This document shows, one piece after another, positions 5,299-26,031 of a stretch of DNA of 64,000 nucleotides. Every line of letters begins with the position of its first letter. Position 1 is the first letter of the stretch. Under the pieces are notes generated by a model, which was not told where the DNA came from, did not search any database, and saw only the letters and a program-made list of their open reading frames with translations. The translations under genes and the position numbers were made by a program. The stretch is taken from contig LCDG01000001.1 in the NCBI GenBank assembly GCA_000998425.1, positions 10,558-74,557 of the forward strand, given 5' to 3'. Origin of the DNA: Candidatus Nomurabacteria bacterium GW2011_GWC2_42_20. Lineage in GTDB: Bacteria; Patescibacteriota; Minisyncoccia; Phycocordibacterales; UBA1550.

Positions 5299-5320
5299 GG
5301 GTGGGGACGAAAGTGACATA

Positions 5321-5358
5321 ACACGAGAACGCCTCTCGCACGAGAGGCGTTCTCGTGT
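5321..5358 (+). terminator. perfect 18-bp-stem palindromic hairpin downstream of the propeller gene (intrinsic terminator-like)
   Basis: acacgagaacgcctctcg-ca-cgagaggcgttctcgtgt; it lies 23 nt after the stop at 5298. Confidence 0.55.
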
Positions 5359-5371
5359 TAGAATATCAGGC

Positions 5372-5656: not shown

Positions 5657-5659
5657 GTT

Positions 5660-9834: not shown

Positions 9835-10725
9835 ATGATTTTAACAAAAGAAGAAATGCGTGCAAAAATAAATGATCTCGAGGCTAGTATGTCCGATGTT
9901 GATTTTTGGACGGACAAGACTAAGGCACAGGCTGTTATAAAGGAAATTGCAGAGCTTAAAGAAAAAATTGCCGGTGTCGGCAAATATGATCGCGGTAATG
10001 CAGTAATGACTATTTTCTCCGGCGCAGGCGGGGATGACTCGGAAGATTTTTCTGGAATGCTCCTTCGTATGTACTTGAAGTTTTTTGAAAAGCAAAATTT
10101 TGAAGCAAAGCTTCTTCACGAAAATAAGAACGACCATGGTGGATATCGCAATATCACACTCGAAATCCATGGGAAAAATGCATACGGAATGCTAAAAAAT
10201 GAATCAGGTGTCCACCGTCTTGTTCGTATTTCGCCATTCAACGCAAAGAAGCTTCGGCATACATCGTTTTCAATGGTTGAAGTTATTCCAGATTTCAGGG
10301 ATAGCGGAAGTGATGAGATGGTTATTCCTGCTGATGATATAAAGATTGAGTTTAGTCGTTCGTCTGGTCCTGGTGGGCAAAATGTAAACAAGCGCGAGAC
10401 TGCAGTGCGTGTGGTACACGTTCCCACAGGAATAGCCGTGCATGTCGAAACCGAGCGCTCTCAGGAGCAAAATCGTGAAAAGGCAATTCAGATACTAAAA
10501 GGAAAACTCTTTAAAAAACAGGACGATGAAAGAAAGGCAACTGAGAGTGGCATGTATATCAGTAAGACTACAGAAATAGAATGGGGGAATCAAATTCGCT
10601 CATATGTACTTCACCCGTACAAGATGGTGAAGGATCATCGTACTAATGTAGAGACATCAAACGTTGACGCAGTGTTAGAAGATGGCGAGATAATGCAATT
10701 CATTGAAGCAGAACGTGATTTATAA
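9835..10725 (+). CDS. prfB: peptide chain release factor 2 (single frame, no programmed frameshift; short domain 1)
   Basis: SPF tripeptide in RISPFNAKKLRHTSF, GGQ in SSGPGGQNVNKRETAVRV. The ATG at 9835 is in frame; an alternative TTG lies at 9799. No CUU-UGA slippery site was found upstream. Confidence 0.85.
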   Translation: MILTKEEMRAKINDLEASMSDVDFWTDKTKAQAVIKEIAELKEKIAGVGKYDRGNAVMTIFSGAGGDDSEDFSGMLLRMYLKFFEKQNFEAKLLHENKNDHGGYRNITLEIHGKNAYGMLKNESGVHRLVRISPFNAKKLRHTSFSMVEVIPDFRDSGSDEMVIPADDIKIEFSRSSGPGGQNVNKRETAVRVVHVPTGIAVHVETERSQEQNREKAIQILKGKLFKKQDDERKATESGMYISKTTEIEWGNQIRSYVLHPYKMVKDHRTNVETSNVDAVLEDGEIMQFIEAERDL

Positions 10726-10737
10726 TATACTTAACCG

Positions 10738-11418
10738 ATGATTTACTTCGACAATGTTTCAAAATCCTACCAAGATGGCACTGTAGCGCTAAATGGTGTA
10801 ACACTTTCAATAAAACAAGGAGAGTTTGTTTCAATTGTTGGGCATTCAGGTGCCGGCAAGACGACTCTCGTGAAGCTACTTTTGGGCGAAGACAATCCAA
10901 CGACTGGAAGTGTGTCCTTCGACTCTGTTAATATTAAAAAAATTAAGGCAAAAGATATGCCAGAGCTTCGTCGTCGTATAGGTGTTATTTTCCAAGATTT
11001 TCGCCTCCTTCCCAACAAGACCGCGTATGAAAACGTGGCATTTGCAATGGAGGTCGCAGGTAAAGCAGACGAGGAAATTGCATCAGATGTCCCTCATGTA
11101 CTAGAACTTGTTGATCTCACAAAAAAAATGTGGAACTTTCCTCGACAGCTTTCTGGAGGCGAGTTGCAACGTGTCGCTATTGCGCGCGCTATTGTGAATC
11201 AGCCAGACTTGATTATTGCCGATGAACCAACAGGGAACCTTGATCCAATCAACACTTACGAAATCGTACAAATTTTAAAGAAAATTAATGATATGGGGAC
11301 AACGGTTATCTTAACGACTCACAATAAGGGCGTAGTAGAGGCTCTTGGGAAACGCGTTATTACAATGGACCACGGTAGAATCATTCGTGACGATTCGACT
11401 GGCAAATATGCACTTTAG
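10738..11418 (+). CDS. ftsE: cell-division ABC transporter ATP-binding protein FtsE
   Basis: Walker A GHSGAGKTT, signature LSGGELQRVAIARA, Walker B LIIADEPTGNLD; followed directly by ftsX. Confidence 0.9.
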   Translation: MIYFDNVSKSYQDGTVALNGVTLSIKQGEFVSIVGHSGAGKTTLVKLLLGEDNPTTGSVSFDSVNIKKIKAKDMPELRRRIGVIFQDFRLLPNKTAYENVAFAMEVAGKADEEIASDVPHVLELVDLTKKMWNFPRQLSGGELQRVAIARAIVNQPDLIIADEPTGNLDPINTYEIVQILKKINDMGTTVILTTHNKGVVEALGKRVITMDHGRIIRDDSTGKYAL

Positions 11419-11443
11419 GAATTAGTGTGACACGTGATACAAT

Positions 11444-12388
11444 ATGTATAACATTATGTTTTGGACAACTATCAAACGAATTATAAAAGCAGGATTCATA
11501 AGTTTTTGGAGAAACGGCAGTGTCTCGCTTTCTGCTGTATTTGTAATGATAGTCGCGCTTTTTATGATTGCTTCTACGCTTTTAATCACGGCATTCCTCG
11601 GTACCGCACTCAAAGATCTTCAGGACAAGATCGATATTAATATTTATGTGGACGAAAAAGCCACAGAACCCGCAATTTTGAGTCTAAAGGAAAAAATTGA
11701 AATTCTTCCAGAGGTTAAATCAGTTTCATATATTTCACGAGAGCAAGCTCTAGAGAATTTTCGAATTCGTCACGAAAACGACCATCGCATCATCCAGGCA
11801 CTTGATGAAATAGGAGACAATCCATTGCCAGCAACACTTACGATAAAGGCAAAGGAGCCATCGCAATATGAAGGTATTTCAAATTTTCTTTCAAATAAAT
11901 CCGAGCTTTCAGCAGGGAGTACGCTTTCGATAGTAAGCAAAGTAAACTACAATGACAACAAAGTAGCTATTGACCGTCTTTCAAAAATTATTATCGGGGT
12001 GAAAAAGCTTGGCGGCATTATCACGGCTATGATGATTGGTATTTCTATACTAATTACATTTAACACTATTCGCCTTGCTATCTTTATTGCTCGTGATGAA
12101 ATAGGGGTGATGCGCCTTGTGGGTGGTAGTAATGAATACGTGCGCGGACCGTTTGTTGTTGAGGGAATCTTGTATGGACTCGTTGCTGCATTTTTGACAC
12201 TCATTTTATTTTATCCTGTCACTTACTGGCTCAAAAATACGACACAGGTATTTTATGGTGGTGTCGACCTGCTGCACTATTTTGTTGCAAACTTCGTGCA
12301 AATATTCGTTATTATAATTCTTTCTGGGATAGCGCTTGGCGCAGTTTCCAGCTATCTCGCGGTTCGAAAATATTTAACATCAAAATAA
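11444..12388 (+). CDS. ftsX: cell-division permease FtsX
   Basis: 314 aa; N-terminal TM, a large periplasmic loop, and three C-terminal TM helices. Both its position after ftsE and its topology match FtsX. Confidence 0.85.
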   Translation: MYNIMFWTTIKRIIKAGFISFWRNGSVSLSAVFVMIVALFMIASTLLITAFLGTALKDLQDKIDINIYVDEKATEPAILSLKEKIEILPEVKSVSYISREQALENFRIRHENDHRIIQALDEIGDNPLPATLTIKAKEPSQYEGISNFLSNKSELSAGSTLSIVSKVNYNDNKVAIDRLSKIIIGVKKLGGIITAMMIGISILITFNTIRLAIFIARDEIGVMRLVGGSNEYVRGPFVVEGILYGLVAAFLTLILFYPVTYWLKNTTQVFYGGVDLLHYFVANFVQIFVIIILSGIALGAVSSYLAVRKYLTSK

Positions 12389-12397
12389 CGTTCACTT

Positions 12398-14056
12398 ATG
12401 AAAAAGAAAACACGCAAGTATATTTTTGTGGTAGGTGGCGTGATTTCTGGAGTCGGCAAAGGGATAACAACTTCCTCTATTGGCAAGATATTGCAGTCTC
12501 ATGGGTATAGGGTAACGGCAATGAAGATTGACCCATATGTGAACGTGGACGCTGGCACGATGAACCCGACTGAGCACGGCGAAGTGTTTGTGCTCAAAGA
12601 CGGCGACGAGACGGATCAGGACATGGGTAATTATGAGCGCTTTCTTGAGACCTCTCTCTCGCGTGATAATTACATGACGACTGGGCGTGTGTACCTCTCG
12701 GTCATTGAAAAAGAGCGGGCACTCGCATACAAGGGTAAGTGCGTGCAGGTTGTGCCACATATTCCATACGAGGTGATTAACCGTATAAATAACGCGGTAG
12801 ACAAGGCAAATGCCGAGATTGTCGTTATTGAGGTCGGAGGTACTGTAGGCGAGTACGAGAATATTCTTTTTCTCGAAACGGCTCGAATGCTTAAAATCAA
12901 AAACCCAGATGATGTACTTTTCGCCATTGTGAGTTATTTGCCTACTCCTTCAAAGGTAGGGGAGATGAAAACAAAGCCTACACAGCATGCAGTACGTGCT
13001 CTCAATAGTGCCGGGATTCAACCAGATTTTATTATTGCGCGTAGCGATATTGCGCTAGATAATAAGCGCAAAGAAAAACTCGCGCTTTTTTGCAATGTAC
13101 TTCCTGAAAGCGTAATATCTGCTCCCGATGTAGATAGTATCTATGACGTTCCAGTGAACTTTGAAAAAGATAAGCTTGGTGAAAAAATTTTGAAGCGTCT
13201 AAATCTAAAATCACGCGGCACGACAGCTGTATGGAAAGAATGGGAAGCATTTGCGCGTAAGGCAAATAAAGTGAAAGATGAGGTGCGTATTGCTGTAGTT
13301 GGAAAATATTTTGATACTGGTGATTATGTTCTCTCAGACTCATATTTGTCGGTTATCGAAGCACTCAAATATTCAGCCATTCACCAAGGTAAAAAAGCAA
13401 AACTCGTATGGCTCAGTGCAGATACTTTTGAAGGAAAGAACCCACCACTTGCAGAGCTTATTGGGTTTGATGGCATACTTATTCCAGGAGGCTTTGGTTC
13501 GCGAGGTGTAGAAGGGAAGATTAATGTTATTCGTTTTGCACGAGAGCACAAGATTCCATACTTTGGTATTTGTTATGGTATGCAGCTAGCCGTCATTGAG
13601 TATGCGAGAAACGTACTTGGTTTCAATGACGCAACTTCACGCGAGATTGACCCAAAATCAAAACATATAGTCATTGATATTATGGAAGGACAAAAAGAAA
13701 ATATTAAAAGTGGTAATCTTGGTGGGAGCATGCGTCTAGGAGCATACGAAGCAGTGCTCAAAAAAGGAACAATAGCGCGCAACGTATATGGCGAAGACAG
13801 GATCGTTGAGCGACACAGGCATCGCTTTGAAGTGAACCCAGAATACATTGAAGCCCTTGAGTCAAAGGGGCTCGTATTCTCAGGCAGATCACCGGATGGT
13901 AGACTCATGGAAATTGCCGAGCTACCAGCAAGCGTACATCCCTTCTTCCTTGGCGCGCAGTTTCATCCAGAGTTTGAGGCGCGTCCTCTAGCAACACATA
14001 AACTTTTTTCCGCGTTTATAAAAGCGGCCATTGTTCGTAATAAAAAGGTTAAATAG
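12398..14056 (+). CDS. pyrG: CTP synthase
   Basis: 552 aa; N-terminal synthetase P-loop VVGGVISGVGKGI; C-terminal glutamine amidotransferase with FGICYGMQLAVIEYARNVLG and the HPEF motif. Confidence 0.95.
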   Translation: MKKKTRKYIFVVGGVISGVGKGITTSSIGKILQSHGYRVTAMKIDPYVNVDAGTMNPTEHGEVFVLKDGDETDQDMGNYERFLETSLSRDNYMTTGRVYLSVIEKERALAYKGKCVQVVPHIPYEVINRINNAVDKANAEIVVIEVGGTVGEYENILFLETARMLKIKNPDDVLFAIVSYLPTPSKVGEMKTKPTQHAVRALNSAGIQPDFIIARSDIALDNKRKEKLALFCNVLPESVISAPDVDSIYDVPVNFEKDKLGEKILKRLNLKSRGTTAVWKEWEAFARKANKVKDEVRIAVVGKYFDTGDYVLSDSYLSVIEALKYSAIHQGKKAKLVWLSADTFEGKNPPLAELIGFDGILIPGGFGSRGVEGKINVIRFAREHKIPYFGICYGMQLAVIEYARNVLGFNDATSREIDPKSKHIVIDIMEGQKENIKSGNLGGSMRLGAYEAVLKKGTIARNVYGEDRIVERHRHRFEVNPEYIEALESKGLVFSGRSPDGRLMEIAELPASVHPFFLGAQFHPEFEARPLATHKLFSAFIKAAIVRNKKVK

Positions 14057-14090
14057 TTTTCGTAGGGATGTTTAAGAAAAAATAGCGATC

Positions 14091-14633
14091 ATGAAAAAGA
14101 TACTTATTATAGTTGCCACAATAATTATAACCATCAATTTTATTGTATCATGGAGACTCGCTGGGAAGGAAAAATTGGTAGTAGTAACAAATTTTGCAGA
14201 GTGTTACGCAACAGGAAGCCTTATTATGGAAAGCTACCCGCGTCAGTGTCGGTATGACGGAAAAACATTTACCGAAAACATTGGCAACGAGTTGGAAAAA
14301 GCGAACATTATTCGTCTGGATAGCCCACGCCCAAACCAAATTATACAAAGTCCGTTACTTATTAAGGGGCAGGCGCGTGGAAACTGGTTCTTCGAAGCGA
14401 GTTTCCCAGTATTTCTTGTAAATTGGGACGGGCTCATTATTGCGCAAGGAATAGCACAGGCAAAAAGTGATTGGATGACTACAGATTTTGTGCCATTTGA
14501 AGCAACCATCGCATTCGTTGTAGATAAAGATGTGTATAGCACCAGAGGCTCGCTCATTCTTAAGAAGGACAATCCATCAGGACTTCCAGAGCATGATGAC
14601 GCAATGGAGATTCCTATAGTATTTCAAAAATAG
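14091..14633 (+). CDS. hypothetical membrane-anchored/secreted protein
   Basis: 180-aa ORF with an N-terminal TM helix; no recognisable motif. Confidence 0.45.
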   Translation: MKKILIIVATIIITINFIVSWRLAGKEKLVVVTNFAECYATGSLIMESYPRQCRYDGKTFTENIGNELEKANIIRLDSPRPNQIIQSPLLIKGQARGNWFFEASFPVFLVNWDGLIIAQGIAQAKSDWMTTDFVPFEATIAFVVDKDVYSTRGSLILKKDNPSGLPEHDDAMEIPIVFQK

Positions 14634-14638
14634 TAATT

Positions 14639-15529
14639 ATGCCTGATAAATATACAGCTGTGTGGGTGTCGCATTCGTCAATGGGGGACTTTATCAAGTG
14701 CCCTCGTTCATACTACCTGCACAATATGTACAAGGATCCGCGTACTGGGCATAAAGTTTCTATTGTGAGTCCGCATATGTCGCTCGGTATTGCAGTGCAT
14801 GAGGTTCTAGAAGGGCTAGCGGATTTTCCGGCAGACACGCGGATGGATAGAGACCTCCTCGCGCTTTATGAGGCAGAATGGAAAAAAGTTTCTGGAAAGA
14901 AAGGCGGCTTTTCTGGTGATGAGGAAGAAGCAGAATTTAAAATTCGCGGAAAAGTTATGCTTGAAAAAGTGACTTGCGATCCGCGTTTTCTCGTGAATAA
15001 ATGCATCAAGCTTCCACAGGACAAAATGCCATGCAACTTTTATTTGAGCGAAGAACACAATATTATTTTGAATGGGCTTGTTGACTGGATTGAGTATTTG
15101 CCACAGACTGATTCGCTCCATATTATAGATTTTAAAACAGGGAAGAATGAGGAGAAGGACGGCTCGCTCCAACTTCCAATCTATCTACTACTTTGCGACG
15201 CGCTTCACAAAAAACGCAAAGTGACAAAGGCGAGCTACTGGTATTTGGAAAGCGACAAACTTATTGAGAAGAAATTACCAGATATAGACATTGCTCGACA
15301 GGAAGTGCTTGACGTTGCCTTGAAGGTGAAGGATGCGCGCGATACCGCAAAGAGGGATGGTGTAGAAAAAGCTTTTGTTTGCCCACATGGAGCGTATGAT
15401 ATTACCACGAAGACTGGCGGGTGTAGTAGCTGTCGCCCATATGAATTTATTCTTGCTGGTGATTCAGCTGTAGAATTTGTCGGCGTCGGTGGCTTTAGTC
15501 AGGATATGTATGTGCTAAAAAGAGTGTAA
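14639..15529 (+). CDS. PD-(D/E)XK nuclease, Cas4/RecB-family-like with a 4-Cys (Fe-S) arrangement
   Basis: 296 aa. It carries the motif HIIDFKTGKNEE (the hhDxKTG type of RecB/Cas4/AddB) and a Q...Y motif (LQLPIYLLL). There is one N-terminal Cys (CPRSYYLH) plus a C-terminal CPHG...GGCSSC triad. Confidence 0.6.
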   Translation: MPDKYTAVWVSHSSMGDFIKCPRSYYLHNMYKDPRTGHKVSIVSPHMSLGIAVHEVLEGLADFPADTRMDRDLLALYEAEWKKVSGKKGGFSGDEEEAEFKIRGKVMLEKVTCDPRFLVNKCIKLPQDKMPCNFYLSEEHNIILNGLVDWIEYLPQTDSLHIIDFKTGKNEEKDGSLQLPIYLLLCDALHKKRKVTKASYWYLESDKLIEKKLPDIDIARQEVLDVALKVKDARDTAKRDGVEKAFVCPHGAYDITTKTGGCSSCRPYEFILAGDSAVEFVGVGGFSQDMYVLKRV

Positions 15530-15537
15530 GAAATTTT

Positions 15538-15858
15538 ATGGAAAAAATGCATATCAATGAAAGGGGATCTCACACGACGGTTATCGAAGGGTCCAAAGAT
15601 ATTTTAAAACTTCTAAAAAAAGCTGGAGTAGAGGTCTCCCCAGGTGTTATCGAGGGGAATGTTAAGGCAAAGGGGAAAAGCGTAAAATTGAAAAAGTTCA
15701 ATAACGAAACTTTTGAAATGGTCGTGGTAGTAAACAGCAGCAAGCAGACTTTCAAGGTGTACGGCAACAACCAAGATGGTATTAGTAGTGCTATACGAGG
15801 ACTGAAAGCTGACGGATGGAATGTTCTTGATACGATGGATTTATCTAGCGGAGCTTAA
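15538..15858 (+). CDS. hypothetical protein
   Basis: 106-aa ORF 8 nt after the nuclease gene; Lys-rich, no motif recognised. Confidence 0.4.
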   Translation: MEKMHINERGSHTTVIEGSKDILKLLKKAGVEVSPGVIEGNVKAKGKSVKLKKFNNETFEMVVVVNSSKQTFKVYGNNQDGISSAIRGLKADGWNVLDTMDLSSGA

Positions 15859-15977
15859 TTTAAGTATAAAAATAAATATGGAACGCCTATATATACGTAT
15901 GTAGAAGAGACCACTCATTTTTTACTGCTTGAAAAAACATGGATTTTGCGGTATGGTAGCAATATTCTGATGAATAT

Positions 15978-16048
15978 TGCGAGATCGTCTAATGGTAGGA
16001 CATCGCCCTCTGGAGGCGGTTATCTTGGTTCGAATCCAGGTCTCGCAG
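15978..16048 (+). tRNA. tRNA-Gln (CUG)
   Basis: U1:A72 acceptor tgcgaga/tctcgca with discriminator G, anticodon arm tcgcc-ctCTGga-ggcgg, T-arm cttgg-ttcgaat-ccagg. Confidence 0.8.
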
Positions 16049-16360
16049 CCGATTTTAAGTTTTTTGCGCGACCAGTAGGTCATTATGGTGAATGAGAAGC
16101 GTTCCTTTACAAAAAAGCTAAAAATCGCGTCGCAGTGTCGCGCATAGCGACACAAGACGTGAACTAATTAGCCCGCCATAGCAATGGAGACAATAAAAAA
16201 GTTGAGACAGGCTCAGTGACTAAAAATCCACAGTGAGTTATTTTTTTCTGAGGTCTTCGTCCAAGAGTCTGCGGTCAAGCGACTGCGTCCAGGACGTGAA
16301 CCTGCTGGTTCAAAATCTACTTATTCAAAAGCAAATAATTCGTCTACGTCGCTAATAACC

Positions 16361-16401
16361 GTGAAAAATTGTGTTTTTAGGCAGATTTTCACGGTTATGG
16401 T
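16361..16401 (+). repeat. hairpin repeat copy A (9-bp perfect inverted repeat ccgtgaaaa/ttttcacgg, followed by ttatg)
   Basis: ccgtgaaaaattgtgtttttaggcagattttcacggttatg; a homologous copy lies at 17104-17143. Confidence 0.5.
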
Positions 16402-16478
16402 TGCAAAAGAGTGAAAATTCCCGTAGGACGAATAAAGAATTGCAAGTTGATACTTATGTTATACTACCTCAAATAAAC

Positions 16479-16880
16479 ATGAAAAAAGATTATAAAGAGT
16501 GGCACTCGAAGAAATCAGAAATTAGTGAAATCAAAAAGAGCCCCTTCTTTCACGAGCGCGAAATTTGGTTTTGTTACCTTGGTTCGAATATAGGTTTTGA
16601 GCAAGACGGAGGGGAGGAATTTTTGAGACCTGTTGTTGTTTTTCGTAAGTTCAACAACGAAATCTTTTGGGCGATTCCACTTACAAAGTCAAAAAAGAAG
16701 CTAAACAAAAAGACGGAGTGTTATTATTACTCATTTTCATTCATACCTGAGGTTACGAGCCTCGCGATATTGTCACAAATTCGTTTAGTTGACGCAAAGA
16801 GACTAAGTCGTCACATTGGTACAATGCCCGAAGAAAGCTTTGATGAACTAAAGAAAAAACTCAAAGCATTAATACCTTGA
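16479..16880 (+). CDS. PemK/MazF-family endoribonuclease toxin-like protein with a ~25-aa N-terminal extension; no cognate antitoxin ORF detected
   Basis: The segment ...EIWFCYLGSNIGFEQDGGEEFLRPVVVFRKFNNEIFWAIPLTKSKKK... and the C-terminal ...LSQIRLVDAKRLSRHIGTMPEESFDELKKKL follow the Kid/PemK pattern (GEIW...G.EQ.G.RPvvV...P.T...R..D...R.....VPE...E.L..L). The track ORF from 16371 uses a GTG start; the first ATG is at 16479. Confidence 0.6.
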   Translation: MKKDYKEWHSKKSEISEIKKSPFFHEREIWFCYLGSNIGFEQDGGEEFLRPVVVFRKFNNEIFWAIPLTKSKKKLNKKTECYYYSFSFIPEVTSLAILSQIRLVDAKRLSRHIGTMPEESFDELKKKLKALIP

Positions 16881-17103
16881 GTTTCTCTTTTTCCTCTACC
16901 TTGCGGCAGAGTCGGGCCGAAGCCGTTTGTAAGTAAAATATACACTACTTACGAAAGAATTGCAAATTTTTCAAGCTGAGTTATCCACAGGCAAGGAAAT
17001 GAATGAGTATTTTTAGGCAACAAAAACCGCATTCTAAAATGCTACTTTTGTTAGAGGTGGTGGTCTCACGCAATAACTTATGAAGGCACTTTTGCATAAT
17101 AAC

Positions 17104-17143
17104 TATGAAAATTATGTTTCTAGGCACATTTTCATAGTTATGC
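17104..17143 (+). repeat. hairpin repeat copy B (10-bp perfect inverted repeat, followed by ttatg)
   Basis: ctatgaaaattatgtttctaggcacattttcatagttatg. Partial extra copies (ataacttatgaagg, catgaaaatttctaagca) lie nearby. Confidence 0.5.
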
Positions 17144-17319
17144 TAACGAAAACATGAAAATTTCTAAGCACCCCTTTTTTGAAGTTTTAAATACAAAAGG
17201 TGGTGGAAGAAATTCTTTTGCCAACAGCCTCACTTAATTTTCTTAGATTGATAGTGGACTTTTTGTAATAAAAATTTATTAGGGGTATACTTTGAGTTAC
17301 CAACACGGCTTATAATTTT

Positions 17320-17667
17320 ATGCAAAAAATCGAAGATTTAACCACCAGAATAACGGCTTTCAGGGATGCGAGAGACTGGAAGCAATTCCATAACCCAAAA
17401 GACTGTGCAATTTCGCTTGCGCTTGAAGCGGCAGAAGTACTAGAGCATTTTCAGTGGAAAAACAAGGAGGAAATGGAAGTTTATGCAAAAACAAACAAAG
17501 AAGAAATAAGCGAAGAGTTAGCTGATGTTTTGTATTGGGTTCTTTTGATGAGTAAGGATCTTGACATCGATGTATTAGAGGCTCTACATAAAAAAATGAA
17601 GAAGAATGAAGATAAGTATCCAGTTGAAAAAGCAAAGGGCAAACATACTAAGTATACTGAACTATAA
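17320..17667 (+). CDS. MazG-like nucleoside triphosphate pyrophosphohydrolase (all-alpha NTP-PPase)
   Basis: 115 aa ...DWKQFHNPKDCAISLALEAAEVLEHFQWK...ISEELADVLYWVLLMSKDLDIDVLEALHKKMKKNEDKYP, the MazG/YpjD pattern (E.EL.DVL..L.......I.L). A TATAAT box sits 12 nt upstream of the ATG. Confidence 0.8.
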   Translation: MQKIEDLTTRITAFRDARDWKQFHNPKDCAISLALEAAEVLEHFQWKNKEEMEVYAKTNKEEISEELADVLYWVLLMSKDLDIDVLEALHKKMKKNEDKYPVEKAKGKHTKYTEL

Positions 17668-17670
17668 AAT

Positions 17671-19692
17671 ATGTCAGAAATTAAAACTTTTCAATTTGAT
17701 AAAGATAAATTTGAACAAATAAGAAGTTACAAGTTTGGTAGAAACTGGCCTGTCGTGTATGTTATCGAAGACGGGAAGGAGCTCTATATTGGGGAGACCA
17801 CAAGTGTGTATTCGAGAAGTAAACAACACCATGAAAATCCAGATAGGGCAAAACTTAATAGAATTCATATCATTACAGATGATGAATATAATAAATCTGC
17901 AACATTAGATATTGAATCTCTGCTAATTCAATATATCTCTGCCGAAGGCACATTTAAAATTCAAAACGGTAATGATGGGCTAAGAAATCATAATTATTTT
18001 GATAAGGAAAAATATAGAGCAAAATTTGAATCTACGTGGGAGAAGCTGAAAGAGATGGCGCTTGTGAAGCAGGATTTGGTCCAGATAAAAAATAGCGACT
18101 TATTTAAGTATTCTCCATACAAGGCCCTGACCGAAGACCAACTGATGGTTGTAAAATGTATTTCTAAAAATTTGGAGGCAAACAAGGAAAAGACTTATAT
18201 AATCAATGGCAAGCCAGGGACTGGAAAAACAATCCTCGCTGTTTACCTAATTAAGTATTTGAAAGAAAATAAAAAAACGAAACACCTAAATGTTGCATTA
18301 GTTGTTCCAATGACGTCGCTAAGGAAAACCATTAGAAAAGTATTTTCCAAAGTTGCTGGATTGAAGTCTAGTATGGTTGTCGGACCTAATGAAGTAGTAA
18401 ATAAGAATTACGATATTCTGATAGTTGATGAGGCTCACAGGTTAAAACAGAGAAAGAATATCGCCAACTATAGGTCATTCGACATCACAAATAAAAAACT
18501 CGGTTTTGATAATTCAGGCACGGAACTAGACTGGATAATGAAATCCTCGAAACAACAGATTTTTTTCTATGATAAGAATCAAACAATAAGACCAACGGAC
18601 GTAAGGCCTGATAAATTTAACAAACTTGGTGCTATTCATTACGACTTAGTCAGTCAGCAAAGAATAAGCGCAGGGGAGGAATACATTAATTTTATTGATG
18701 ACCTATTTGATCTTAAGGACCTCAGAAAATATACTTTCCCAGATTATGATTTTCAAATTTATGATGATATTCATAAAATGGTTGAGGATATAAAGAACAA
18801 GGATGCAGAAATGAAACTTTGTAGAATGGTTGCTGGTTACGCTTGGCCGTGGAATTCAAAGAAAAATATAAATAATCACGATATAGAAATTGATGGATTG
18901 AAGATGTTTTGGAATAGTACGAACCAAGATTGGGTAAATTCAAAAAATGCTATAAATGAAGTTGGTTGCATCCATACTGTGCAGGGCTATGATCTAAATT
19001 ACATTGGTGTAATAATTGGGCCTGAAATCTCATATGATGAAGGGAATAGAAAATTGATAGTTAATCCTGATAACTATTTAGATGCAAATGGATGGAAAGG
19101 CATCAATGATCCTGATGAACTCGAAAGATACATTATAAATATTTACAAAACGCTCCTAACCCGAGGCATAAAAGGTGCTTATGTTTATATTGTGGATAAA
19201 AAGCTAGCCAAGTATTTCAGAGATAATATTAAATTAAATAGACAAATAAGTAACACCGCAGCAAAAGAAAAAATTGTTTCTCCATATGCCATAGAAATGA
19301 TCAGCGTGCCACTTCTCGGTATGGCTCCATGTGGCGCTCCGTTTAATGCAGAAGAAAACACTGATGAAATGATCCTTGTTCCAAAAAGTAAAATTCAGCG
19401 TGGCATAGAGTATTTCATTCTGCGTGCTACAGGAGACTCTATGAATAAAGTTGGAATAAATGATGGTGACCTAGTACTCTGTAAGCAAAAATTAACTGCA
19501 CATGAAAATGACAAAGTTGTTGCCTTAATTGGAGACAGAGTGACGATTAAGGAATTTCATCGAGATGGAGCACAGATTGTGCTTAGACCCAGATCTACAA
19601 ATCCGGAGCATCGAGATATTTATCCTGATGAAGATGTTCAAGTTCAAGGTATAGTATTGGAAGTAATAAACAGATTTGAGTATGAAGAATAA
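17671..19692 (+). CDS. tri-domain fusion: GIY-YIG nuclease + DUF2075 (Schlafen-like P-loop NTPase) + C-terminal LexA/UmuD-type S24 self-cleaving peptidase
   Basis: The GIY-YIG motif is WPVVYVIEDGKELYIGETTSVYSRSKQH. The ATPase has Walker A INGKPGTGKT, Walker B ILIVDEAHRL and a later IHTVQGYDLNYIGVIIG segment. The C-terminal ~130 aa read VPLLGMAPCGAPF...ILRATGDSM..GINDGDLVL...KVVALIGDRVTIKEFHRDG..IVLRPRS.NPEH, aligning with LexA/UmuD (Ser in GDSM, Lys in TIKEF, UmuD-like Cys-Gly cleavage site). Confidence 0.7.
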   Translation: MSEIKTFQFDKDKFEQIRSYKFGRNWPVVYVIEDGKELYIGETTSVYSRSKQHHENPDRAKLNRIHIITDDEYNKSATLDIESLLIQYISAEGTFKIQNGNDGLRNHNYFDKEKYRAKFESTWEKLKEMALVKQDLVQIKNSDLFKYSPYKALTEDQLMVVKCISKNLEANKEKTYIINGKPGTGKTILAVYLIKYLKENKKTKHLNVALVVPMTSLRKTIRKVFSKVAGLKSSMVVGPNEVVNKNYDILIVDEAHRLKQRKNIANYRSFDITNKKLGFDNSGTELDWIMKSSKQQIFFYDKNQTIRPTDVRPDKFNKLGAIHYDLVSQQRISAGEEYINFIDDLFDLKDLRKYTFPDYDFQIYDDIHKMVEDIKNKDAEMKLCRMVAGYAWPWNSKKNINNHDIEIDGLKMFWNSTNQDWVNSKNAINEVGCIHTVQGYDLNYIGVIIGPEISYDEGNRKLIVNPDNYLDANGWKGINDPDELERYIINIYKTLLTRGIKGAYVYIVDKKLAKYFRDNIKLNRQISNTAAKEKIVSPYAIEMISVPLLGMAPCGAPFNAEENTDEMILVPKSKIQRGIEYFILRATGDSMNKVGINDGDLVLCKQKLTAHENDKVVALIGDRVTIKEFHRDGAQIVLRPRSTNPEHRDIYPDEDVQVQGIVLEVINRFEYEE

Positions 19693-19717
19693 ATAATATT
19701 GAATCTAAAAAATAATT

Positions 19718-20497
19718 ATGGAAAAACTTTCTTATTCAAAAAAACTTTATTACAAGGCCGGCGTAAAACTCTTGATTTTTCCGATCCTAGCAATGATTTT
19801 AGGAATTAGTTTTTTTGTTTATGGTATTGATAACGCGATCGCACTTGGTGTTCCGTTGGCTGGACTTGTTGGTTTTGGTCTCGGGTTTATCCTCTTCCCA
19901 CTAAGTGAGCGAGTCCAAACAATATTTGATAAAAAAATTGACCACATCTATTCAAAATATGCAGACCCGATTATAGATGATAGAGATGCAGCAAAACGAG
20001 GAATAGACGGAGAAAGCATTGTCTTTGGCTGGCTTAATGAAATTCTTACTGATAAATCGTGGTCAATATATAAAAATGTAGAATTTACAGCAGGCGACAA
20101 AAATAAATTTGACATAGATGCCATAGTGGTCGGCCCGAAAGGAATTTTTGTATTTGAGATAAAGAATTTGTCATATGACTTTTTCTTTACTTCACATGAC
20201 TGTGATGTGGTGGTGGGTGAACAAATTCGACCATGCTCTCAAAAAGACCCGCGAATACAGATTGCTCAAAATGCAGAGATATTAGAAAAGAAACTGAAGG
20301 CAAGTGGCTTTAATGGAGTAAAAACGAAGCGCGCAGTTGTGTTTGCTCGACCAGAATCCATTCGGTTTCTCGGGAGCACTACAGTCTTTTTGATAGATAA
20401 TAAGGAAACTTTAAAGAGGTATATGCTCGAACAGTATGATGACCTGAGGTTTACGCCTGAGTTTTGTGAAAAAGTAAAAGAGGCAATTTTGTCATAA
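19718..20497 (+). CDS. membrane-anchored NERD (nuclease-related domain) protein
   Basis: 259 aa; two N-terminal TM helices, then GIDGESIVFGWLNEIL...KFDIDAIVVGPKGIFVFEIKNLSY...QIAQNAEILEKKLK, matching the NERD pattern (G..GE...L..L...DiD.vvv...GifviEvKn). Confidence 0.65.
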   Translation: MEKLSYSKKLYYKAGVKLLIFPILAMILGISFFVYGIDNAIALGVPLAGLVGFGLGFILFPLSERVQTIFDKKIDHIYSKYADPIIDDRDAAKRGIDGESIVFGWLNEILTDKSWSIYKNVEFTAGDKNKFDIDAIVVGPKGIFVFEIKNLSYDFFFTSHDCDVVVGEQIRPCSQKDPRIQIAQNAEILEKKLKASGFNGVKTKRAVVFARPESIRFLGSTTVFLIDNKETLKRYMLEQYDDLRFTPEFCEKVKEAILS

Positions 20498-20574
20498 TTT
20501 GACAATTAAAAGACTGACGCGTGGGAATCCTACAATGACAGCTAAATTTGCTGAGTTAGAAATTAATGAGGATT

Positions 20575-20610
20575 AAACAAAAGCATGATTTATCATGCTT
20601 TTGAAGTTTG
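20575..20610 (+). terminator. intrinsic terminator after the NERD gene
   Basis: aaagcatgat-ttatc-atgcttt followed by a T-rich run. Confidence 0.6.
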
Positions 20611-20798
20611 TAATTTTATCTAAAAAGGTTCCAGCTTTGTCCCAAACTCCCAGCCAAGAAATAGTATCGCATAGTGTTTATCGAGGCATGATACTGAGAC
20701 GCAAGACATTACCTAAACATAGGATTTGTATTCGTGGTCTTTGCTGCTCACTAATATCTAGAGTATAATTTGGTTGTTATCAGTTAATTACTAATTAT

Positions 20799-21266
20799 AT
20801 GGATACCAAAGTAAAAATTTCCGCAGTAGCACTTCGCTTGCTTTTGGGTTGGTTCATGTTTTTTGATGGACTTGGTATTCTTCTTAATCCAAATTTTACA
20901 GCTACTGGTTTTCTTACAAACGCAAAAACTTTTCAAGGTTTTTATTCATGGTTTGCGCTTCCGATGAATATTTGGTGGGTTGATTTTATTACTCCATTGG
21001 CAATTATTCTTATAGGTGTTTCTCTTTTGGTAGGGGTTGGCGTGCGACTAGCGTCGTGGGCAGGTGCCTTTCTTATGATTATCTATTATTTCCCACATTA
21101 TTATTTTCCAATTGTTACATACGGATACATTGTTGAAGAACATATCATTTACGCAGCAGTCTTTGTTCTAATAGCGCTTTGGACTCCTGCTCAGGAATTT
21201 GGTTTTAGCGGAGTTCTAAAGCGTTCTTTCTTGGGCCGCGTTTCATTTTTACGCTCGATTCTGTAG
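20799..21266 (+). CDS. DoxX-family membrane protein
   Basis: 155 aa with four TM helices; N-terminal ...ALRLLLGWFMFFDGLGIL..., typical of DoxX; TATAAT box at ~20762. Confidence 0.65.
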   Translation: MDTKVKISAVALRLLLGWFMFFDGLGILLNPNFTATGFLTNAKTFQGFYSWFALPMNIWWVDFITPLAIILIGVSLLVGVGVRLASWAGAFLMIIYYFPHYYFPIVTYGYIVEEHIIYAAVFVLIALWTPAQEFGFSGVLKRSFLGRVSFLRSIL

Positions 21267-21358
21267 CTATTAGTCGGTTTTGCAATTAAAAACACAAGCA
21301 CCAATCCGGCAATACCAGTTTGGTGCTTGTGTTTTTGTGGTACCATATTAATAATACG

Positions 21359-22207
21359 ATGAAAAAGATTATGCGCGTTATTTTGGTTGTCGCAGTTGTG
21401 GGGGTAGTTTTCCTTATGCTTTCCTACACAAGCAGTCACAATATGGGCGTGTTCAACCCGAAGGGAACAATTGCCCATGCGGAAATGAACCTTATTGTCA
21501 CGACAACGCTACTCATGCTTATTGTGGTTATCCCTGTATTCGTTATGCTCGCAATTTTTTCATGGAGATACAGGGCTGGTAATACGAAGGCAAAGTATTC
21601 TCCAGACTGGCATAAAAGTATCGCGTTGGAAGTGATTTGGTGGATAATACCAATAATAATTATTGCTATTATTGCAAGGATGACGTGGATTAGTAGTCAT
21701 GATCTTGATCCATATAAACCGATTGCTTCAAGTGTTGTTCCAATTACAATAGAGGTTGTTGCTCTTGAGTGGAAATGGCTGTTCATTTATCCGGATCAAA
21801 ACATCGCTACTTTGAATTTTGTACAATTGCCAATTGATACACCTATTAATTTTAGGATAACTGGCGACGCACCGATGAATTCATTTTGGATTCCCCAGCT
21901 TGCGGGACAAATATATGCAATGGAGAAAGGGGACTATGCAGGTGTTTCCGCAAACTACAGTGGATTTGGGTTTTCGGGAATGAAGTTTACAGCGAGGGCG
22001 AGCTCGCAAGACGAGTTTGAACAGTGGGTGCGAACAGTTCGTATGTCACCAAGCACACTTAGTATTGATGAATACACCAAGCTTGCAGAAAAAAGTAGGA
22101 ATAATGATGTCTCGTACTACTCATCTGTTCACAAAGGTTTGTATGATAAAATAATAATGAAATTCATGGTGCCAGCGAATGTAATAATGACGAAAATGAA
22201 TATGTAA
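21359..22207 (+). CDS. cyoA: cytochrome o/bo3-type ubiquinol oxidase subunit II (no CuA site)
   Basis: Two N-terminal TM helices plus a cupredoxin-like domain ...[25 protein letters not shown]... lacking the CuA Cys/His ligands, resembling quinol-oxidase subunit II. ATG at 21359; the track uses TTG at 21320. Confidence 0.8.
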
Positions 22208-22211
22208 TATT

Positions 22212-24164
22212 ATGTTTGGAAACCTCACACTCTCTGCGCTCCCACATGAACCAATCACCGTTGGAGCTGGTATTTTTATGGCTATCGCTGGCTCAAGCAT
22301 TATAGGACTTTTGTTTTATTTCAAGCGCTGGAGGTGGCTTTGGGCAGAATGGCTCACATCAGTAGATCATAAAAAGATCGGTGTGATGTACATCATTTTG
22401 GCTTTCGTGATGCTTCTCCGCGGCTTTTCTGATGCCGTAATGATGCGATTACAGCAAATATTGTCAGTCGGTGATTCTGTGGGGTATTTGCCACCAGAGC
22501 ATTACGACCAAATATTTACGGCACACGGAGTGATCATGATCTTTTTTGTTGCGATGCCGCTCATGTTTGGGTTAATCAACCTGGCGGTGCCACTTCAGAT
22601 CGGAGCGAGAGATGTTGCTTTTCCTTTTCTCAACTCGATGAGCCTTTGGCTCACTGTTTTTGGCGCGATGTTGGTAAACTTGTCGCTTGTAGTGGGGGAG
22701 TTTGCGGCGACTGGGTGGCTCGCATACCCGCCACTTTCGGGCATTGTGTATAGTCCTGGTGTAGGGGTGGACTATTATATTTGGGCGCTACAGATTGCAG
22801 GTGTCGGAAGCTTGATCTCTGGAATAAATTTCTTTGTAACTATACTTATGATGCGTTGCAAGGGGATGACACTCATGAGGATGCCAGTTTTTGTGTGGAC
22901 CGTCCTTGCTTCTATGACGCTCGTTATTATTTCTTTTCCAATTCTTACAGCCACGCTCGGAATGCTCTCATTGGATAGGCTTCTCGGAATGCATTTTTTT
23001 ACGTCGGACTTTGGCGGGAATGCAATGATGTATGTGAACCTTATTTGGGCGTGGGGGCATCCTGAGGTATATATTCTCGTATTACCAGCATTCGGTATTT
23101 TTTCTGAAGTTGTTTCAGTATTTTCACGCAAGAAACTTTTTGGATATACATCGATGATCTACGCGACAGTTGCTATTACGTTTTTGTCATTTGTGGTTTG
23201 GGTACACCACTTCTTTACGATGGGCGCTGGCGCAAATGTAAATGCTTTCTTTGGCATCATGACAATGATCATTGCCATACCAACTGGTGTGAAGGTTTTT
23301 AATTGGCTATTCACAATGTTTCGCGGACGCATCGTGTTTGCATCGCCAATGCTCTGGATGATTGGGTTTATTTTTACATTCACAATAGGTGGGATGACAG
23401 GAGTTTTGCTTTCCGTGCCAGCTGCTGATTTTCAGCTACACAACAGTTTATTTTTAGTCGCGCATTTTCACAATACGATTATCGGTGGTGTAGTATTCGG
23501 ATACTTTGCTGGGATCACATATTGGTTTTCAAAGATTTTTGGCTTCAAATTGAATGAACGACTCGGCAAGGCTGCCTTTTGGCACTGGATTGTAGGCTTT
23601 TTTGTAGCGTTTGTACCTCTTTATATTCTTGGTCTAATGGGAATGACGAGACGCATAAGCCATATAGATGAATCTACTGGATGGCAGACACTTTTGATCG
23701 TTGCTGGTATCGGTGTAGTAATTATCGGCATCGGTGTCCTGCTACAAATTTTGCAAATGATTGTAAGTATCCGCGACCGCAAGCACAACATGGATACGAC
23801 CGGAGATCCATGGGACGGTAGGACTTTGGAGTGGTCTACATCTTCACCTCCGCCTTTCTATAACTTTGCTATTATCCCAACAGTGCACGGTCGCCACCCT
23901 TTTTGGGATACGAAGTATGGCGAATCCGAACAGGTTGCTCCACACTATGAGGATATTGAAATGCCGAGTAATACGCCGATGGGTTTGTACATTGCATTTG
24001 CGAGCGTGGTATTTGGCTTTGCAATCGTGTGGCATATCGTATGGTTAGTGGTGTTAGCGTTTGCAGCTATTTTGGCGCTTCTTATTGCGCGTTCACTTGA
24101 TTACAATACTGAGTATGTTGTGAAGGCAGAGACGATCGCAAAAATTGAAGCTAAAAGAAAATAA
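22212..24164 (+). CDS. cyoB: heme-copper quinol oxidase subunit I
   Basis: 650 aa, ~14 TM helices; conserved [22 protein letters not shown] and HFHNTIIGG motifs (heme and CuB His ligands). Confidence 0.95.
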
Positions 24165-24165
24165 T

Positions 24166-24780
24166 ATGAAAGAAGAAACACTAAATCATAACAGTTTCCG
24201 ACCAGGGCGTGAGTCTGCTGACGGAGAAGCGAAGGCAATCTTCGGTTTCTGGGTATATATTATGAGTGACACACTTTTGTTTGCTGCTATCTTTGCTACA
24301 CATGCAGTGCTTCACAATAATACCTTCGATGGTCCGTCGGCAAAGGAGCTTGTTAATATGACATTTGTTTTGACTGAGACACTCGTTCTTCTCGCAAGTA
24401 GTTTTGCGTTTGGTATTGCTTCTACATATGCGCATCATCATAATAAGAAAAATATTGTACTTGTATGGATCAGTGTCACATTTCTTCTAGGCGCAGCATT
24501 TATTGGGATGGAGATGACGGAGTTTGCAAAGCTTTTTCAAGAAGGGAATAGTTGGCAGAGGAGCGGATTTTTATCAGGTTTCTTTACCCTTATTGGTACG
24601 CACGGGCTGCATGTGACTGCAGGTCTCATTTGGATGGTGAGTGTATTTGCTCAGGTATTGAAGTATGGGCTCACAGACAGAACAATAGGGAGAATATCAA
24701 CACTAGGACTATTTTGGCATTTCCTCTACATCGTGTGGATATTTATATTCACCCTTGTTTATCTTATGGGGGTAATATAA
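24166..24780 (+). CDS. cyoC: quinol oxidase subunit III
   Basis: ~200-aa 5-TM protein at the subunit-III position in the operon; ...LGLFWHFLYIVWIFIF... fits the subunit III C-terminus. Confidence 0.85.
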   Translation: MKEETLNHNSFRPGRESADGEAKAIFGFWVYIMSDTLLFAAIFATHAVLHNNTFDGPSAKELVNMTFVLTETLVLLASSFAFGIASTYAHHHNKKNIVLVWISVTFLLGAAFIGMEMTEFAKLFQEGNSWQRSGFLSGFFTLIGTHGLHVTAGLIWMVSVFAQVLKYGLTDRTIGRISTLGLFWHFLYIVWIFIFTLVYLMGVI

Positions 24781-24787
24781 AAATACT

Positions 24788-25171
24788 ATGACAAACAATT
24801 TTGAAGTCATTGATGAACGATATGAAGCAAGTCACCATGCATTTAAATCATATGCCATTGGGTTTGTGTTGTCTCTTTTGTTCACAATTGTTCCGTATTT
24901 TCTAGTTATCAAACGCCTGTTTGGTGACCAGAGCCTAATATTGGCGGTGGTTTTTTTCGCCGTCGCACAGTTTTTTGTACAGGTAGTATTCTTCCTTCAT
25001 CTTCATAAAAAATCGCGACCGCGTTGGAATATGATTGTTTTCATTTTTACGATTTTGATTGTCGCAATTTTGGTCGTAGGGTCTCTGTGGGTCATGCGTA
25101 ACCTAGATTACAACATGACGAAAGTGTTCGATCTGAACACAAATGAAGGGTATATGCTAGAAAAAAAATGA
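24788..25171 (+). CDS. cyoD: quinol oxidase subunit IV
   Basis: 127-aa 3-TM protein at the subunit-IV position. Confidence 0.7.
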   Translation: MTNNFEVIDERYEASHHAFKSYAIGFVLSLLFTIVPYFLVIKRLFGDQSLILAVVFFAVAQFFVQVVFFLHLHKKSRPRWNMIVFIFTILIVAILVVGSLWVMRNLDYNMTKVFDLNTNEGYMLEKK

Positions 25172-26031
25172 TCAAAGATTATTATTTCATAACAAAACCA
25201 GGAATTATAGGAGGCAACGCAATTACTGCTATTGCTGGTTTTTTACTTGCATCTAGAGGGGATATCAATTGGCTCATTCTCTTCGCGACACTTGCTGGGC
25301 TTTCTCTTGTTGTTGCATCAGGATGCGTTTTTAACAATTACATCGACCGCGACATTGATGCAATCATGGAGCGTACAAAAAACCGCACAATGGCACAAGG
25401 GCGGTCATCTCTTAGAAGCGCACTCGTGTATGCGTCGGTGCTTGGACTAACCGGTCTTGGTATTTTATATTTTTATACAAATTTTTTAGCGATGGCAGCC
25501 GCACTTATAGGGCTCTTTGTTTATGTAGTTGGATATAGTTTGTGGCTCAAGCGCACTTCTACCATTAGCGCCATTATTGGAAGTGTCTCTGGAGCTATGC
25601 CTCCAGTTGTGGGGTATCTTGCGGTGACTGGAAACATTGACCTAGGTGCTGTCATTATATTTTTTATTCTCGCGTTTTGGCAGATGCCCCATTCGTATGC
25701 AATTGCCATATATCGGCTCAGGGATTATACAAATGCGAGTATCCCCGTTTTACCAGCAGAAAAAGGAATTTATATGACAAAGGTGCATATGCTTATTTAT
25801 GTTGCCCTTTTTGTAATGGCAAGTTTGGCGCTGTCTGTATTTGGTTATGCAGGGCAGCTTTATTTTTGTGCAATGATATTGTTTGGATTCGCGTGGTTCC
25901 TCCTGTGTGTTAAGGGTTTCTTCATTAAAACAACTAATAATAAAAAATGGGCGCACAGCATGTATATTTTTTCAATCATTATTATTGCAATGTTTTTCCT
26001 AGTTGTTTTGGTTGAGGCGCTACAGATATAG
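25168..26031 (+). CDS. cyoE: protoheme IX farnesyltransferase (heme O synthase)
   Basis: 287 aa, UbiA-family; ...YIDRDIDAIMERTKNRTMAQG... (D-rich prenyl-diphosphate-binding motif). It overlaps cyoD by 4 nt. Confidence 0.9.
   Translation: MIKDYYFITKPGIIGGNAITAIAGFLLASRGDINWLILFATLAGLSLVVASGCVFNNYIDRDIDAIMERTKNRTMAQGRSSLRSALVYASVLGLTGLGILYFYTNFLAMAAALIGLFVYVVGYSLWLKRTSTISAIIGSVSGAMPPVVGYLAVTGNIDLGAVIIFFILAFWQMPHSYAIAIYRLRDYTNASIPVLPAEKGIYMTKVHMLIYVALFVMASLALSVFGYAGQLYFCAMILFGFAWFLLCVKGFFIKTTNNKKWAHSMYIFSIIIIAMFFLVVLVEALQI

Follow-up and report, generated by a model that had tools for sequence, protein, structure and literature searches.

A GIY-YIG nuclease-helicase carrying a LexA/UmuD-type S24 autopeptidase, with its MazG-like partner: a conserved two-gene operon and probable DNA-damage-gated immune device

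In this study, a 64,000-nucleotide (nt) stretch of the Candidatus Nomurabacteria bacterium GW2011_GWC2_42_20 genome (assembly GCA_000998425.1, contig LCDG01000001.1, positions 10,558 to 74,557 of the forward strand; hereafter the window, with coordinates counted from its first letter) was analysed, with a focus on one gene whose 673-amino-acid (aa) product joins a GIY-YIG nuclease, a DUF2075 helicase and an S24 autopeptidase of the LexA/UmuD type. Together with a MazG-like gene, this nuclease-helicase gene constitutes a conserved two-gene operon, in which the MazG-like protein is an obligate partner. Among the proteins compared, S24 is an optional C-terminal module of the nuclease-helicase, gained or lost repeatedly and present in at least three subtypes. 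We see roughly an even chance that the fusion belongs to a widespread two-gene conflict (defence-type) module, in which RecA*-stimulated self-cleavage would free the nuclease-helicase from S24; judged from its constant pairing with a pyrophosphatase gene and its place among anti-virus genes, the fusion is probably a DNA-damage-gated immune device.

Results and Discussion

Architecture of the fusion protein and its nuclease head

The operon and the parts of the fusion gene are as follows.

17320..17667, + strand: MazG-like (DCTPP1/RS21-C6-like) all-alpha nucleoside-triphosphate pyrophosphohydrolase, 115 aa (PF12643, E = 6.5e-19)
17671..19692, + strand: fusion protein open reading frame (ORF), 673 aa, ATG start; GIY-YIG nuclease, DUF2075/Schlafen (SLFN) group III helicase and S24 autopeptidase
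17746..17973, + strand: GIY-YIG nuclease core, aa 26-101 (Y30, Y39, G41, R49, E82, N99)
18190..19197, + strand: DUF2075/Schlafen group III superfamily 1 (SF1) helicase domain, aa 174-509
18208-18231, + strand: Walker A motif GKPGTGKT, aa 180-187
18427-18438, + strand: Walker B motif DEAH, aa 253-256
19198..19299, + strand: variable linker from helicase to S24, aa 510-543
19300..19674, + strand: LexA/UmuD-type S24 serine autopeptidase domain, aa 544-668 (Ser590 at 19438-19440, Lys627 at 19549-19551)
19330..19335, + strand: predicted scissile bond Cys554-Gly555 (in alignments, LexA Ala84-Gly85 and UmuD Cys24-Gly25)

All motifs named in the initial annotation of this stretch were found in place (VVY at aa 28-30, YIG at 39-41, R49, GKPGTGKT, DEAH, LLGMAPCGAPF at 548-558, GDSM at 588-591 and TIKEF at 625-629), and alignments of homologues revealed that the three modules are real and keep their catalytic residues across the family. 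Three Pfam domains had been anticipated. Two of these were recovered with strong scores, i.e. PF09848 (DUF2075, now named 'Schlafen group 3 helicase'; E = 4e-68, full-length match) and Peptidase_S24 (E = 3.8e-22), but the third, PF01541 (GIY-YIG), scored 17.3-21.2 bits (17.3 in the Pfam check), under its gathering score of 22.6. An AlphaFold2 (AF2) model of the 673-aa protein reached a predicted local distance difference test score (pLDDT) of 83 and a predicted template modelling score of 0.68. The linker between helicase and S24 is variable in the homologue alignment, its pLDDT drops below 50 at aa 523-539, and natural S24-less homologues terminate within this region.

At the level of the family, PF01541 was matched at E<=0.01 by 47 of 51 N-termini (best 5.8e-8), and divergent relatives pass its curated threshold with 23-36 bits. 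Residues Y30, Y39, G41, R49, E82 and N99 are invariant in alignments of 31 and of 51 homologues, and the motif pair VVY30-x8-Y39IG41, with R49 downstream, is arranged as in the GIY-YIG superfamily. A comparison of the N-terminal profile with the PDB gave weak matches to I-TevI, T4 EndoII and UvrC-N; the GIY-YIG alpha/beta fold is present in the head, the closest fold being that of the UvrC N-terminal domain. By analogy with UvrC and I-TevI, R49 would be the catalytic residue, E82 would bind the metal and N99 would take the role of the conserved Asn.

The S24 autopeptidase domain

The C-terminal region of the fusion protein models as a LexA fold, with structural matches to 1jhc, 2ho0 and 3bdn, so that a refuting condition set in the initial annotation, failure to model as an S24 fold, does not hold. 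Its best PDB sequence matches are LexA C-terminal domains (E ~1e-12). Residues S590 and K627 align to S119 and K156 of LexA and are kept in all 44 non-redundant members, which bears out the proposed catalytic pair; the predicted UmuD-type Cys-Gly scissile bond is likewise a family trait, since Cys-Gly, GDSM and T[IL]K were found in 47/47 S24-bearing members. The cleavage site occurs in two flavours, a LexA-like PLVGSAPCG and a PLFESVGCG that bears a striking likeness to the PLFSDLVQCG of UmuD. The Cys-Gly loop (aa 552-556) has low pLDDT in the AF2 model, and this is consistent with a mobile cleavage-site region.

Two established identities were considered and rejected. The C-terminus covers only positions 79-201 of LexA in NCBIfam and its 87.5 bits lie below the equivalog cut-off of TIGR00498 (110.95); moreover, its N-terminal side is a nuclease-helicase and not a winged-helix domain, so the protein is not a LexA repressor. 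The UmuD model NF007621 gave 67 bits against a cut-off of 110, and neither UmuC nor a Y-family polymerase accompanies the fusion gene in any of the contexts examined.

In LexA, a pocket formed by F111, L113 and V153 receives F203 of loop L2 of RecA (Gao et al., PMC9926225). This pocket is conserved in the family, the equivalent positions being F582 (F in 44/44), L584 (L in 32, V in 12) and V624 (V in 29, A in 14, I in one), in a mapping onto E. coli LexA with the numbering checked on A84, G85, S119 and K156. With its catalytic and scissile residues kept, the S24 domain of the fusion protein looks competent for self-cleavage.

A MazG-like pyrophosphohydrolase is the obligate partner

The initial annotation had recorded a MazG-like gene as the upstream neighbour of the fusion gene. 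This gene is indeed there, directly upstream and ending at 17667 with a spacer of 3 nt, but it is not a mere neighbour: a MazG-like gene lies directly upstream of the helicase gene in 86/87 loci, the lone exception (L064) being a contig with just 48 nt upstream, and the gap between the two genes is <=5 nt in 72/79 loci. Already the first four homologue contexts each had a 112-115-aa PF12643 gene directly upstream, with a varied downstream gene. The pairing is kept in a divergent ~730-aa lineage (L088) and on megaplasmids of the Bacillus cereus group, with pyrophosphatases that are 54% identical and with the RefSeq names 'nucleotide pyrophosphohydrolase' and 'DUF2075 domain-containing protein'. 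In two IMG/VR contigs (L094, 3188-5031, and L095, 3520-5363) the order is inverted, with the MazG-like gene downstream of the helicase gene and still adjacent to it.

Two arrangements deserve separate mention. A separate XRE-type helix-turn-helix (HTH) gene (5299-5661) precedes the MazG-like gene of L088. Plasmid p1 of Bacillus sp. PGP15 (L089, 1042-5668) carries in tandem a pyrophosphohydrolase, a 686-aa 'GIY-YIG nuclease family protein', a MazG-like fragment (3662-3835) and a DUF2075 protein, and this order suggests duplication and decay of the module on the megaplasmid.

The MazG-like protein of the window matches PDB entry 4qgp (E = 1.6e-22) and, over its whole length, mouse RS21-C6/human DCTPP1 (E = 8e-18). 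Residues E36, E39, E42, E66 and D69, which include the ExxE...ExxD metal-binding signature shared with DCTPP1, are 100% conserved (79/79 sequences), and such invariance implies that enzymatic activity, rather than mere binding, is under selection. Its likeness to DCTPP1 suggests dCTP or a 5-modified dCTP as the substrate. It differs from DCTPP1/RS21-C6 in being a stand-alone bacterial protein of 115 aa, translationally coupled to a nuclease-helicase.

Distribution of the family

The initial annotation knew of no characterised protein with this architecture. No description was found in the literature, but the architecture is by no means rare: it belongs to a large family, some members of which already bear the JGI automatic annotation 'DUF2075 family protein/SOS-response transcriptional repressor LexA'. 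A word-indexed search revealed at least 120 clusters of ~670-aa proteins with PF09848 and PF00717 at 59-94% identity, some of them named Candidatus Nomurabacteria or Pacebacteria, and the same architecture was found in 46 further loci, so homologues that share the whole of it do exist. An exhaustive search of 1.84 billion representatives gave 516 clusters at E<=1e-30. Among GTDB species representatives, at least 577 species encode a relative, the great majority being Patescibacteria and a few belonging to Clostridium and Bacteroidota. Phage collections contain almost no relatives, namely only 5 contigs among the 2.9 million of IMG/VR and one fragment listed in GenBank as 'Bacteriophage sp.', and a phage-borne origin was therefore rejected.

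A mis-join of a DUF2075 gene and a lexA/umuD gene between 19250 and 19300 had been named as a possible source of the fusion. All that would speak for such an artefact is that S24-less relatives end near the join point; the continuous ORF, however, recurs in the above clusters and loci, which come from different, independent assemblies and include divergent lineages with different S24 subtypes. This recurrence excludes a chimera, the probability of which we regard as practically negligible.

S24 is an optional module

S24 is present in 47 and absent from 39 of the 86 family proteins extracted. Those without S24 have a genuine stop at ~520-530 aa. One of them (P0063, locus L007) is encoded by a full-length gene, is 77% identical to the window protein and keeps its MazG-like partner. 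The ORF that follows it was considered as a split-off S24 and rejected, as its translation is unrelated and has a DUF559/Vsr-like look. S24-bearing and S24-less forms are interleaved on a neighbour-joining tree of the helicase core, where the window protein is sister to the S24-less one from L007; crude as this tree is, the interleaving implies multiple losses or gains.

Besides the subtype of the window, a second S24 subtype occurs in relatives at 40-47% identity (VAAG/AACG site, GESM/GRSM/GNSM and YT[VLI]K) and a third one in protein P0121 (VSAG, GNSM and SIKEF). All three hold an (A/C)-G site, the Ser and the Lys. In P0260, a C-terminal XRE-type HTH (HTH_3, E = 4.7e-11) occupies the S24 slot, and P0170 has an extra N-terminal HSDR_N domain. 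The view of S24 as the central logic of the fusion, put forward in the initial annotation, had therefore to be abandoned: the domain is dispensable and, because relatives of 77% identity that lack it still keep the MazG-like partner, it would be a regulatory add-on and not the core of the system.

Proposed mechanism

According to the model to which we give about an even chance, the full-length protein would be latent, or dimerised, through its S24 domain. RecA filaments on single-stranded DNA (ssDNA) would build up in the course of phage replication, prophage induction or DNA damage; S24 would dock in the groove of such a filament, as LexA and UmuD do, and the Ser590/Lys627 dyad would cut the Cys554-Gly555 bond. 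This would free the nuclease-helicase as a ~554-aa counterpart of the natural S24-less enzymes, which could translocate on, nick or degrade its target DNA. Meanwhile, the pyrophosphatase would deplete or sanitise the dCTP-type or modified nucleotides of the dNTP pool or, alternatively, would restrain the nuclease-helicase.

The main argument for activation by release is that the N-terminal product differs from the natural S24-less enzymes by no more than ~30 linker residues; since these enzymes are conserved and presumably active, the product should be functional. In this model we infer the cleavage itself, its RecA* trigger, its direction (activation as opposed to inactivation), the DNA target, the substrate of the pyrophosphatase and the anti-phage role. 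A broader idea, which we hold more tentatively and consider somewhat doubtful, is that S24, in at least three subtypes, has repeatedly been captured to sense RecA filaments and thereby to license an immune nuclease-helicase directly.

Comparison with known systems

The design logic of the fusion protein is shared with its closest characterised counterparts, two nuclease-helicases for which anti-phage activity has been shown by experiment: Nhi (S. epidermidis SERP2475; Bari et al., bioRxiv 10.1101/776245) and 'Nhi-like' (B. cereus SG141; Millman et al. 2022). Like the window protein, both combine an N-terminal nuclease and a DUF2075 SF1B-type helicase in one polypeptide; their head, however, is of the PD-(D/E)XK type, and they have neither a MazG-like partner nor S24. 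The fusion protein was not assigned to Nhi, as it has a GIY-YIG head, a PADLOC match that is only partial and an obligate MazG-like partner, and identity with the verified 'Nhi-like' protein was rejected as well, there being no meaningful similarity beyond the P-loop. By analogy, the fusion protein plausibly works like an Nhi.

The operon shares its two-gene layout with the defence candidate 'Pyrophosphatase' (SG192/SG193), a pair of adjacent MazG-like and nuclease-DUF2075 genes (Millman et al. 2022, supplementary file 11). The MazG-like proteins of the window and of SG192 are 50% identical (E = 4e-32) and the helicase cores 26% (E = 4e-11). The DUF2075 protein of this candidate differs in having a PD-(D/E)XK head and no S24, and the pair was never named or characterised.

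With respect to LexA, UmuD and lambda CI, the difference lies in the cargo, which here is a ~540-aa nuclease-helicase and not a winged-helix/HTH domain or the short arm of UmuD. The helicase domain also invites comparison with the group III Schlafens. The nuclease of SLFN11 is an N-terminal Schlafen/AlbA-type tRNA endoribonuclease, and SLFN11 is recruited through RPA; unlike the fusion protein, it has no self-cleaving RecA-responsive domain, so that the parallel is one of analogy. A literature search found no publication on S24 fused to a helicase or nuclease and none on a MazG+helicase defence system, although this is not proof of absence. Taken by domain content, the fusion is of a known kind, that of the nuclease-DUF2075 defence enzymes; what appears new, and unprecedented, is the S24 regulatory add-on.

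Genomic neighbourhood

A Pfam census of 149 immediate neighbours was led by NYN, Fic, NucS_C, MrcB_N, YhcG PD-(D/E)XK and extra DUF2075 paralogues; further families were Mrr_cat, AbiEii, PemK, NA-iREase1, NERD, DNA methylases and DpnI, and ordinary genes (TspO, HAD, glyoxalase) were intermixed. L088 adjoins a methyltransferase and a ResIII helicase, and the copies on Bacillus plasmids adjoin HNH and zeta toxin genes. The neighbourhood of the operon is thus defence-island-like, being rich in restriction, toxin and abortive infection (Abi) types, in keeping with the setting first proposed. Its composition is highly variable: 215 of 294 flanking ORFs are singletons, and no third gene is conserved.

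The operon of the window is set in a block of 33-36% GC (16100-20700), compared with ~42% in the flanks. The block starts just past a tRNA gene and holds, besides the operon, two further genes; all three are listed here.

15978-16050: tRNA-Gln(CTG), adjacent to the block
16371-16880: PemK/MazF-like toxin ORF (PF02452, E = 1.9e-10), with no obvious antitoxin gene
19718-20497: NERD-domain protein (PF08378, E = 1.3e-15) with two N-terminal hydrophobic segments

This tRNA-adjacent block looks like a small acquired islet. A duplication of the tRNA-Gln end as an attachment (att) site bordering the islet was sought and dismissed, as its sole match, at 16573-16595, falls within the PemK-like ORF and probably arose by chance. 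An Rfam search of 15500-21500 found the tRNA alone. From its ~130-aa homologues, the true start of the PemK-like gene is probably an ATG near 16479; PemK-like homologues are found near the operon in four other loci (L014, L046, L059 and L068).

The NERD gene, named earlier as the downstream neighbour of the fusion gene, is real, but it is not part of the system. It was rejected as a third component, as a NERD gene follows the operon only in the window and in one weak case (L049), and only 2/149 scanned flanking ORFs carry NERD. Its product weakly resembles PglW and MAD6 in their NERD regions, and it is probably an independent defence-type gene.

A palindromic element of ~47 nt occurs in exactly two copies in the window (16353-16399 and 17097-17143), upstream of the PemK-like and of the MazG-like gene. 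Both arms show symmetric (compensatory) differences between the copies (ACCGTGAAAA...TTTTCACGGT vs ACTATGAAAA...TTTTCATAGT), and the RNA-fold z-scores are -5.6 and -4.8. The element may act as a shared operator or form a hairpin; the idea that it is conserved for regulation was rejected, as the palindrome was found in 0/90 related loci and is private to this genome.

The RF1-FtsE-FtsX-PyrG synteny upstream of the operon is common to the window (10000-17300) and locus L006 (1-5600), but the variable genes that separate pyrG from the MazG-like gene differ, those of L006 being Fic-like. The slot downstream of pyrG may thus be a variable hotspot in this lineage.

Several other genes of the window were recorded. 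A Cas4-like PD-(D/E)XK nuclease gene (14639-15529; PF12705, E = 6.8e-20, weak Cas4 matches) lies between pyrG and the tRNA gene. A DoxX gene (20799-21266) precedes a complete cyoABCDE-type quinol oxidase operon (21320-26031; COX_ARM, COX1 with E = 6e-146, COX3, COX4_pro and UbiA/CyoE), which is unusual for a genome with Patescibacteria (candidate phyla radiation, CPR) as its closest relatives.

Alternative explanations

Several observations weigh against a RecA*-gated defence module. LexA and lambda CI, two of the three classic S24 precedents, are inactivated by cleavage. The acidic RecA-contact patch of LexA (D150/D151/E152) is only partly kept in the family, the corresponding positions being G621, D/E622 (42/44) and 623, mostly N or D. 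Upstream of the operon, no LexA-box-like operator is shared among 84 loci, where the Patescibacteria LexA motif itself was not scanned; the upstream words that these loci share are extended -10-like only. A motif scan found neither recA nor lexA in the window and is silent on the rest of the genome, so that the presence of the trigger (RecA) in this genome is assumed. The PADLOC matches to Nhi (3e-16) and AbiO (5e-14) are partial and confined to the helicase core (aa 139-378), and PADLOC v2 has no model for a MazG-like and nuclease-helicase pair. SG192 (Bacillus firmus; PD-(D/E)XK head, no S24) was marked 'x', i.e. no protection against the phage panel used (Millman et al. 2022). Finally, the family is highly conserved, with 50-77% identity between members from different CPR classes, and L006 has the operon downstream of pyrG as the window does; both facts would also fit housekeeping repair. 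Such a module of DNA-damage tolerance or repair, which we consider unlikely, would be a compact SOS effector for reduced CPR genomes: the MazG-like protein would sanitise non-canonical dNTPs, the GIY-YIG helicase would process damaged DNA or stalled forks with a nuclease like UvrC-N or SLX1, and S24 would couple it to RecA as in UmuD-Pol V. The UvrC-like fold of the head, the LexA/UmuD likeness of S24 (including the PLFESVGCG flavour) and the occurrence of RecG, MsrA/B and MgsA among the neighbours at some loci agree with this, as does the fact that DCTPP1-type enzymes are house-cleaning enzymes. It is at odds with the patchy distribution, with hypervariable neighbours dominated by restriction, toxin and Abi genes, with the low-GC islet beside a tRNA gene, with carriage on Bacillus megaplasmids next to HNH and zeta toxin genes, with the lack of a UmuC or Y-family polymerase partner in the contexts examined, and with the repeated loss or gain of S24, which is unlike a core repair factor.

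Within a defence module, S24 might still act in the opposite sense or not act as a peptidase. Cleavage could be an off-switch that removes a dimerisation domain, exposes degrons and spares the RecA-coated intermediates of the host during the SOS response, or S24 could be a scaffold that does no more than dimerise the protein or tether it to RecA filaments. Taken jointly, these options are also given a low probability. The same chemistry inactivates LexA and lambda CI, to which the domain is structurally matched; the LexA C-terminal domain is a dimerisation module; the linker and the Cys-Gly loop are flexible in the model; and the HTH of P0260 indicates that the slot can hold non-catalytic modules. 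An off-switch is, however, hard to reconcile with near-identical S24-less enzymes that persist under selection, so that removal of S24 is not destructive in itself. The dyad and the scissile bond are strictly kept, as (A/C)-G, Ser and Lys even in all three subtypes, which argues against a purely structural role. An addiction pair similar to a toxin-antitoxin system, with the nuclease-helicase as toxin and the MazG-like protein as antidote or regulator, selfish and without a dedicated anti-phage role, appears quite improbable. That a small gene is translationally coupled so tightly to a large one, and that toxins are frequent nearby (PemK, Fic, AbiEii, zeta), would suit it, and toxicity could explain why SG193 failed cloning (Millman et al. 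2022), but complete conservation of the catalytic acidic residues of the MazG-like protein points to an enzyme. Moreover, the boundary between toxin-antitoxin systems and abortive infection is blurred, so that such a pair overlaps the RecA*-gated defence module.

Significance

Self-cleavage of S24 is a textbook switch that, to our knowledge, is known almost only for repressors (LexA, CI, SetR-type) and for UmuD. If S24 does act here as a RecA-filament sensor that licenses an immune nuclease-helicase, its autoproteolysis would for the first time be seen to turn on an enzyme effector, instead of turning off a repressor or maturing UmuD, and the family would show the S24 switch wired directly to a DNA-degrading motor enzyme. 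The module would then be a bacterial counterpart of the ssDNA-stress-triggered action of SLFN11, set beside a DCTPP1-like attack on the (possibly modified) dNTP pool of the invader.

The analysis defines a clean and very widespread two-gene module, which occurs in no fewer than 577 species and also on megaplasmids of Bacillus, and returns to a MazG-like and DUF2075 candidate that was shortlisted in 2022 and dropped after one negative test. Its natural S24-bearing, S24-less and HTH variants are ready controls for the regulation of Schlafen-type helicases, a question shared with human SLFN11. For the bacteria themselves, especially the CPR/Patescibacteria with their tiny genomes, it would mean that RecA filaments are read post-translationally and an effector is deployed without a transcriptional step.

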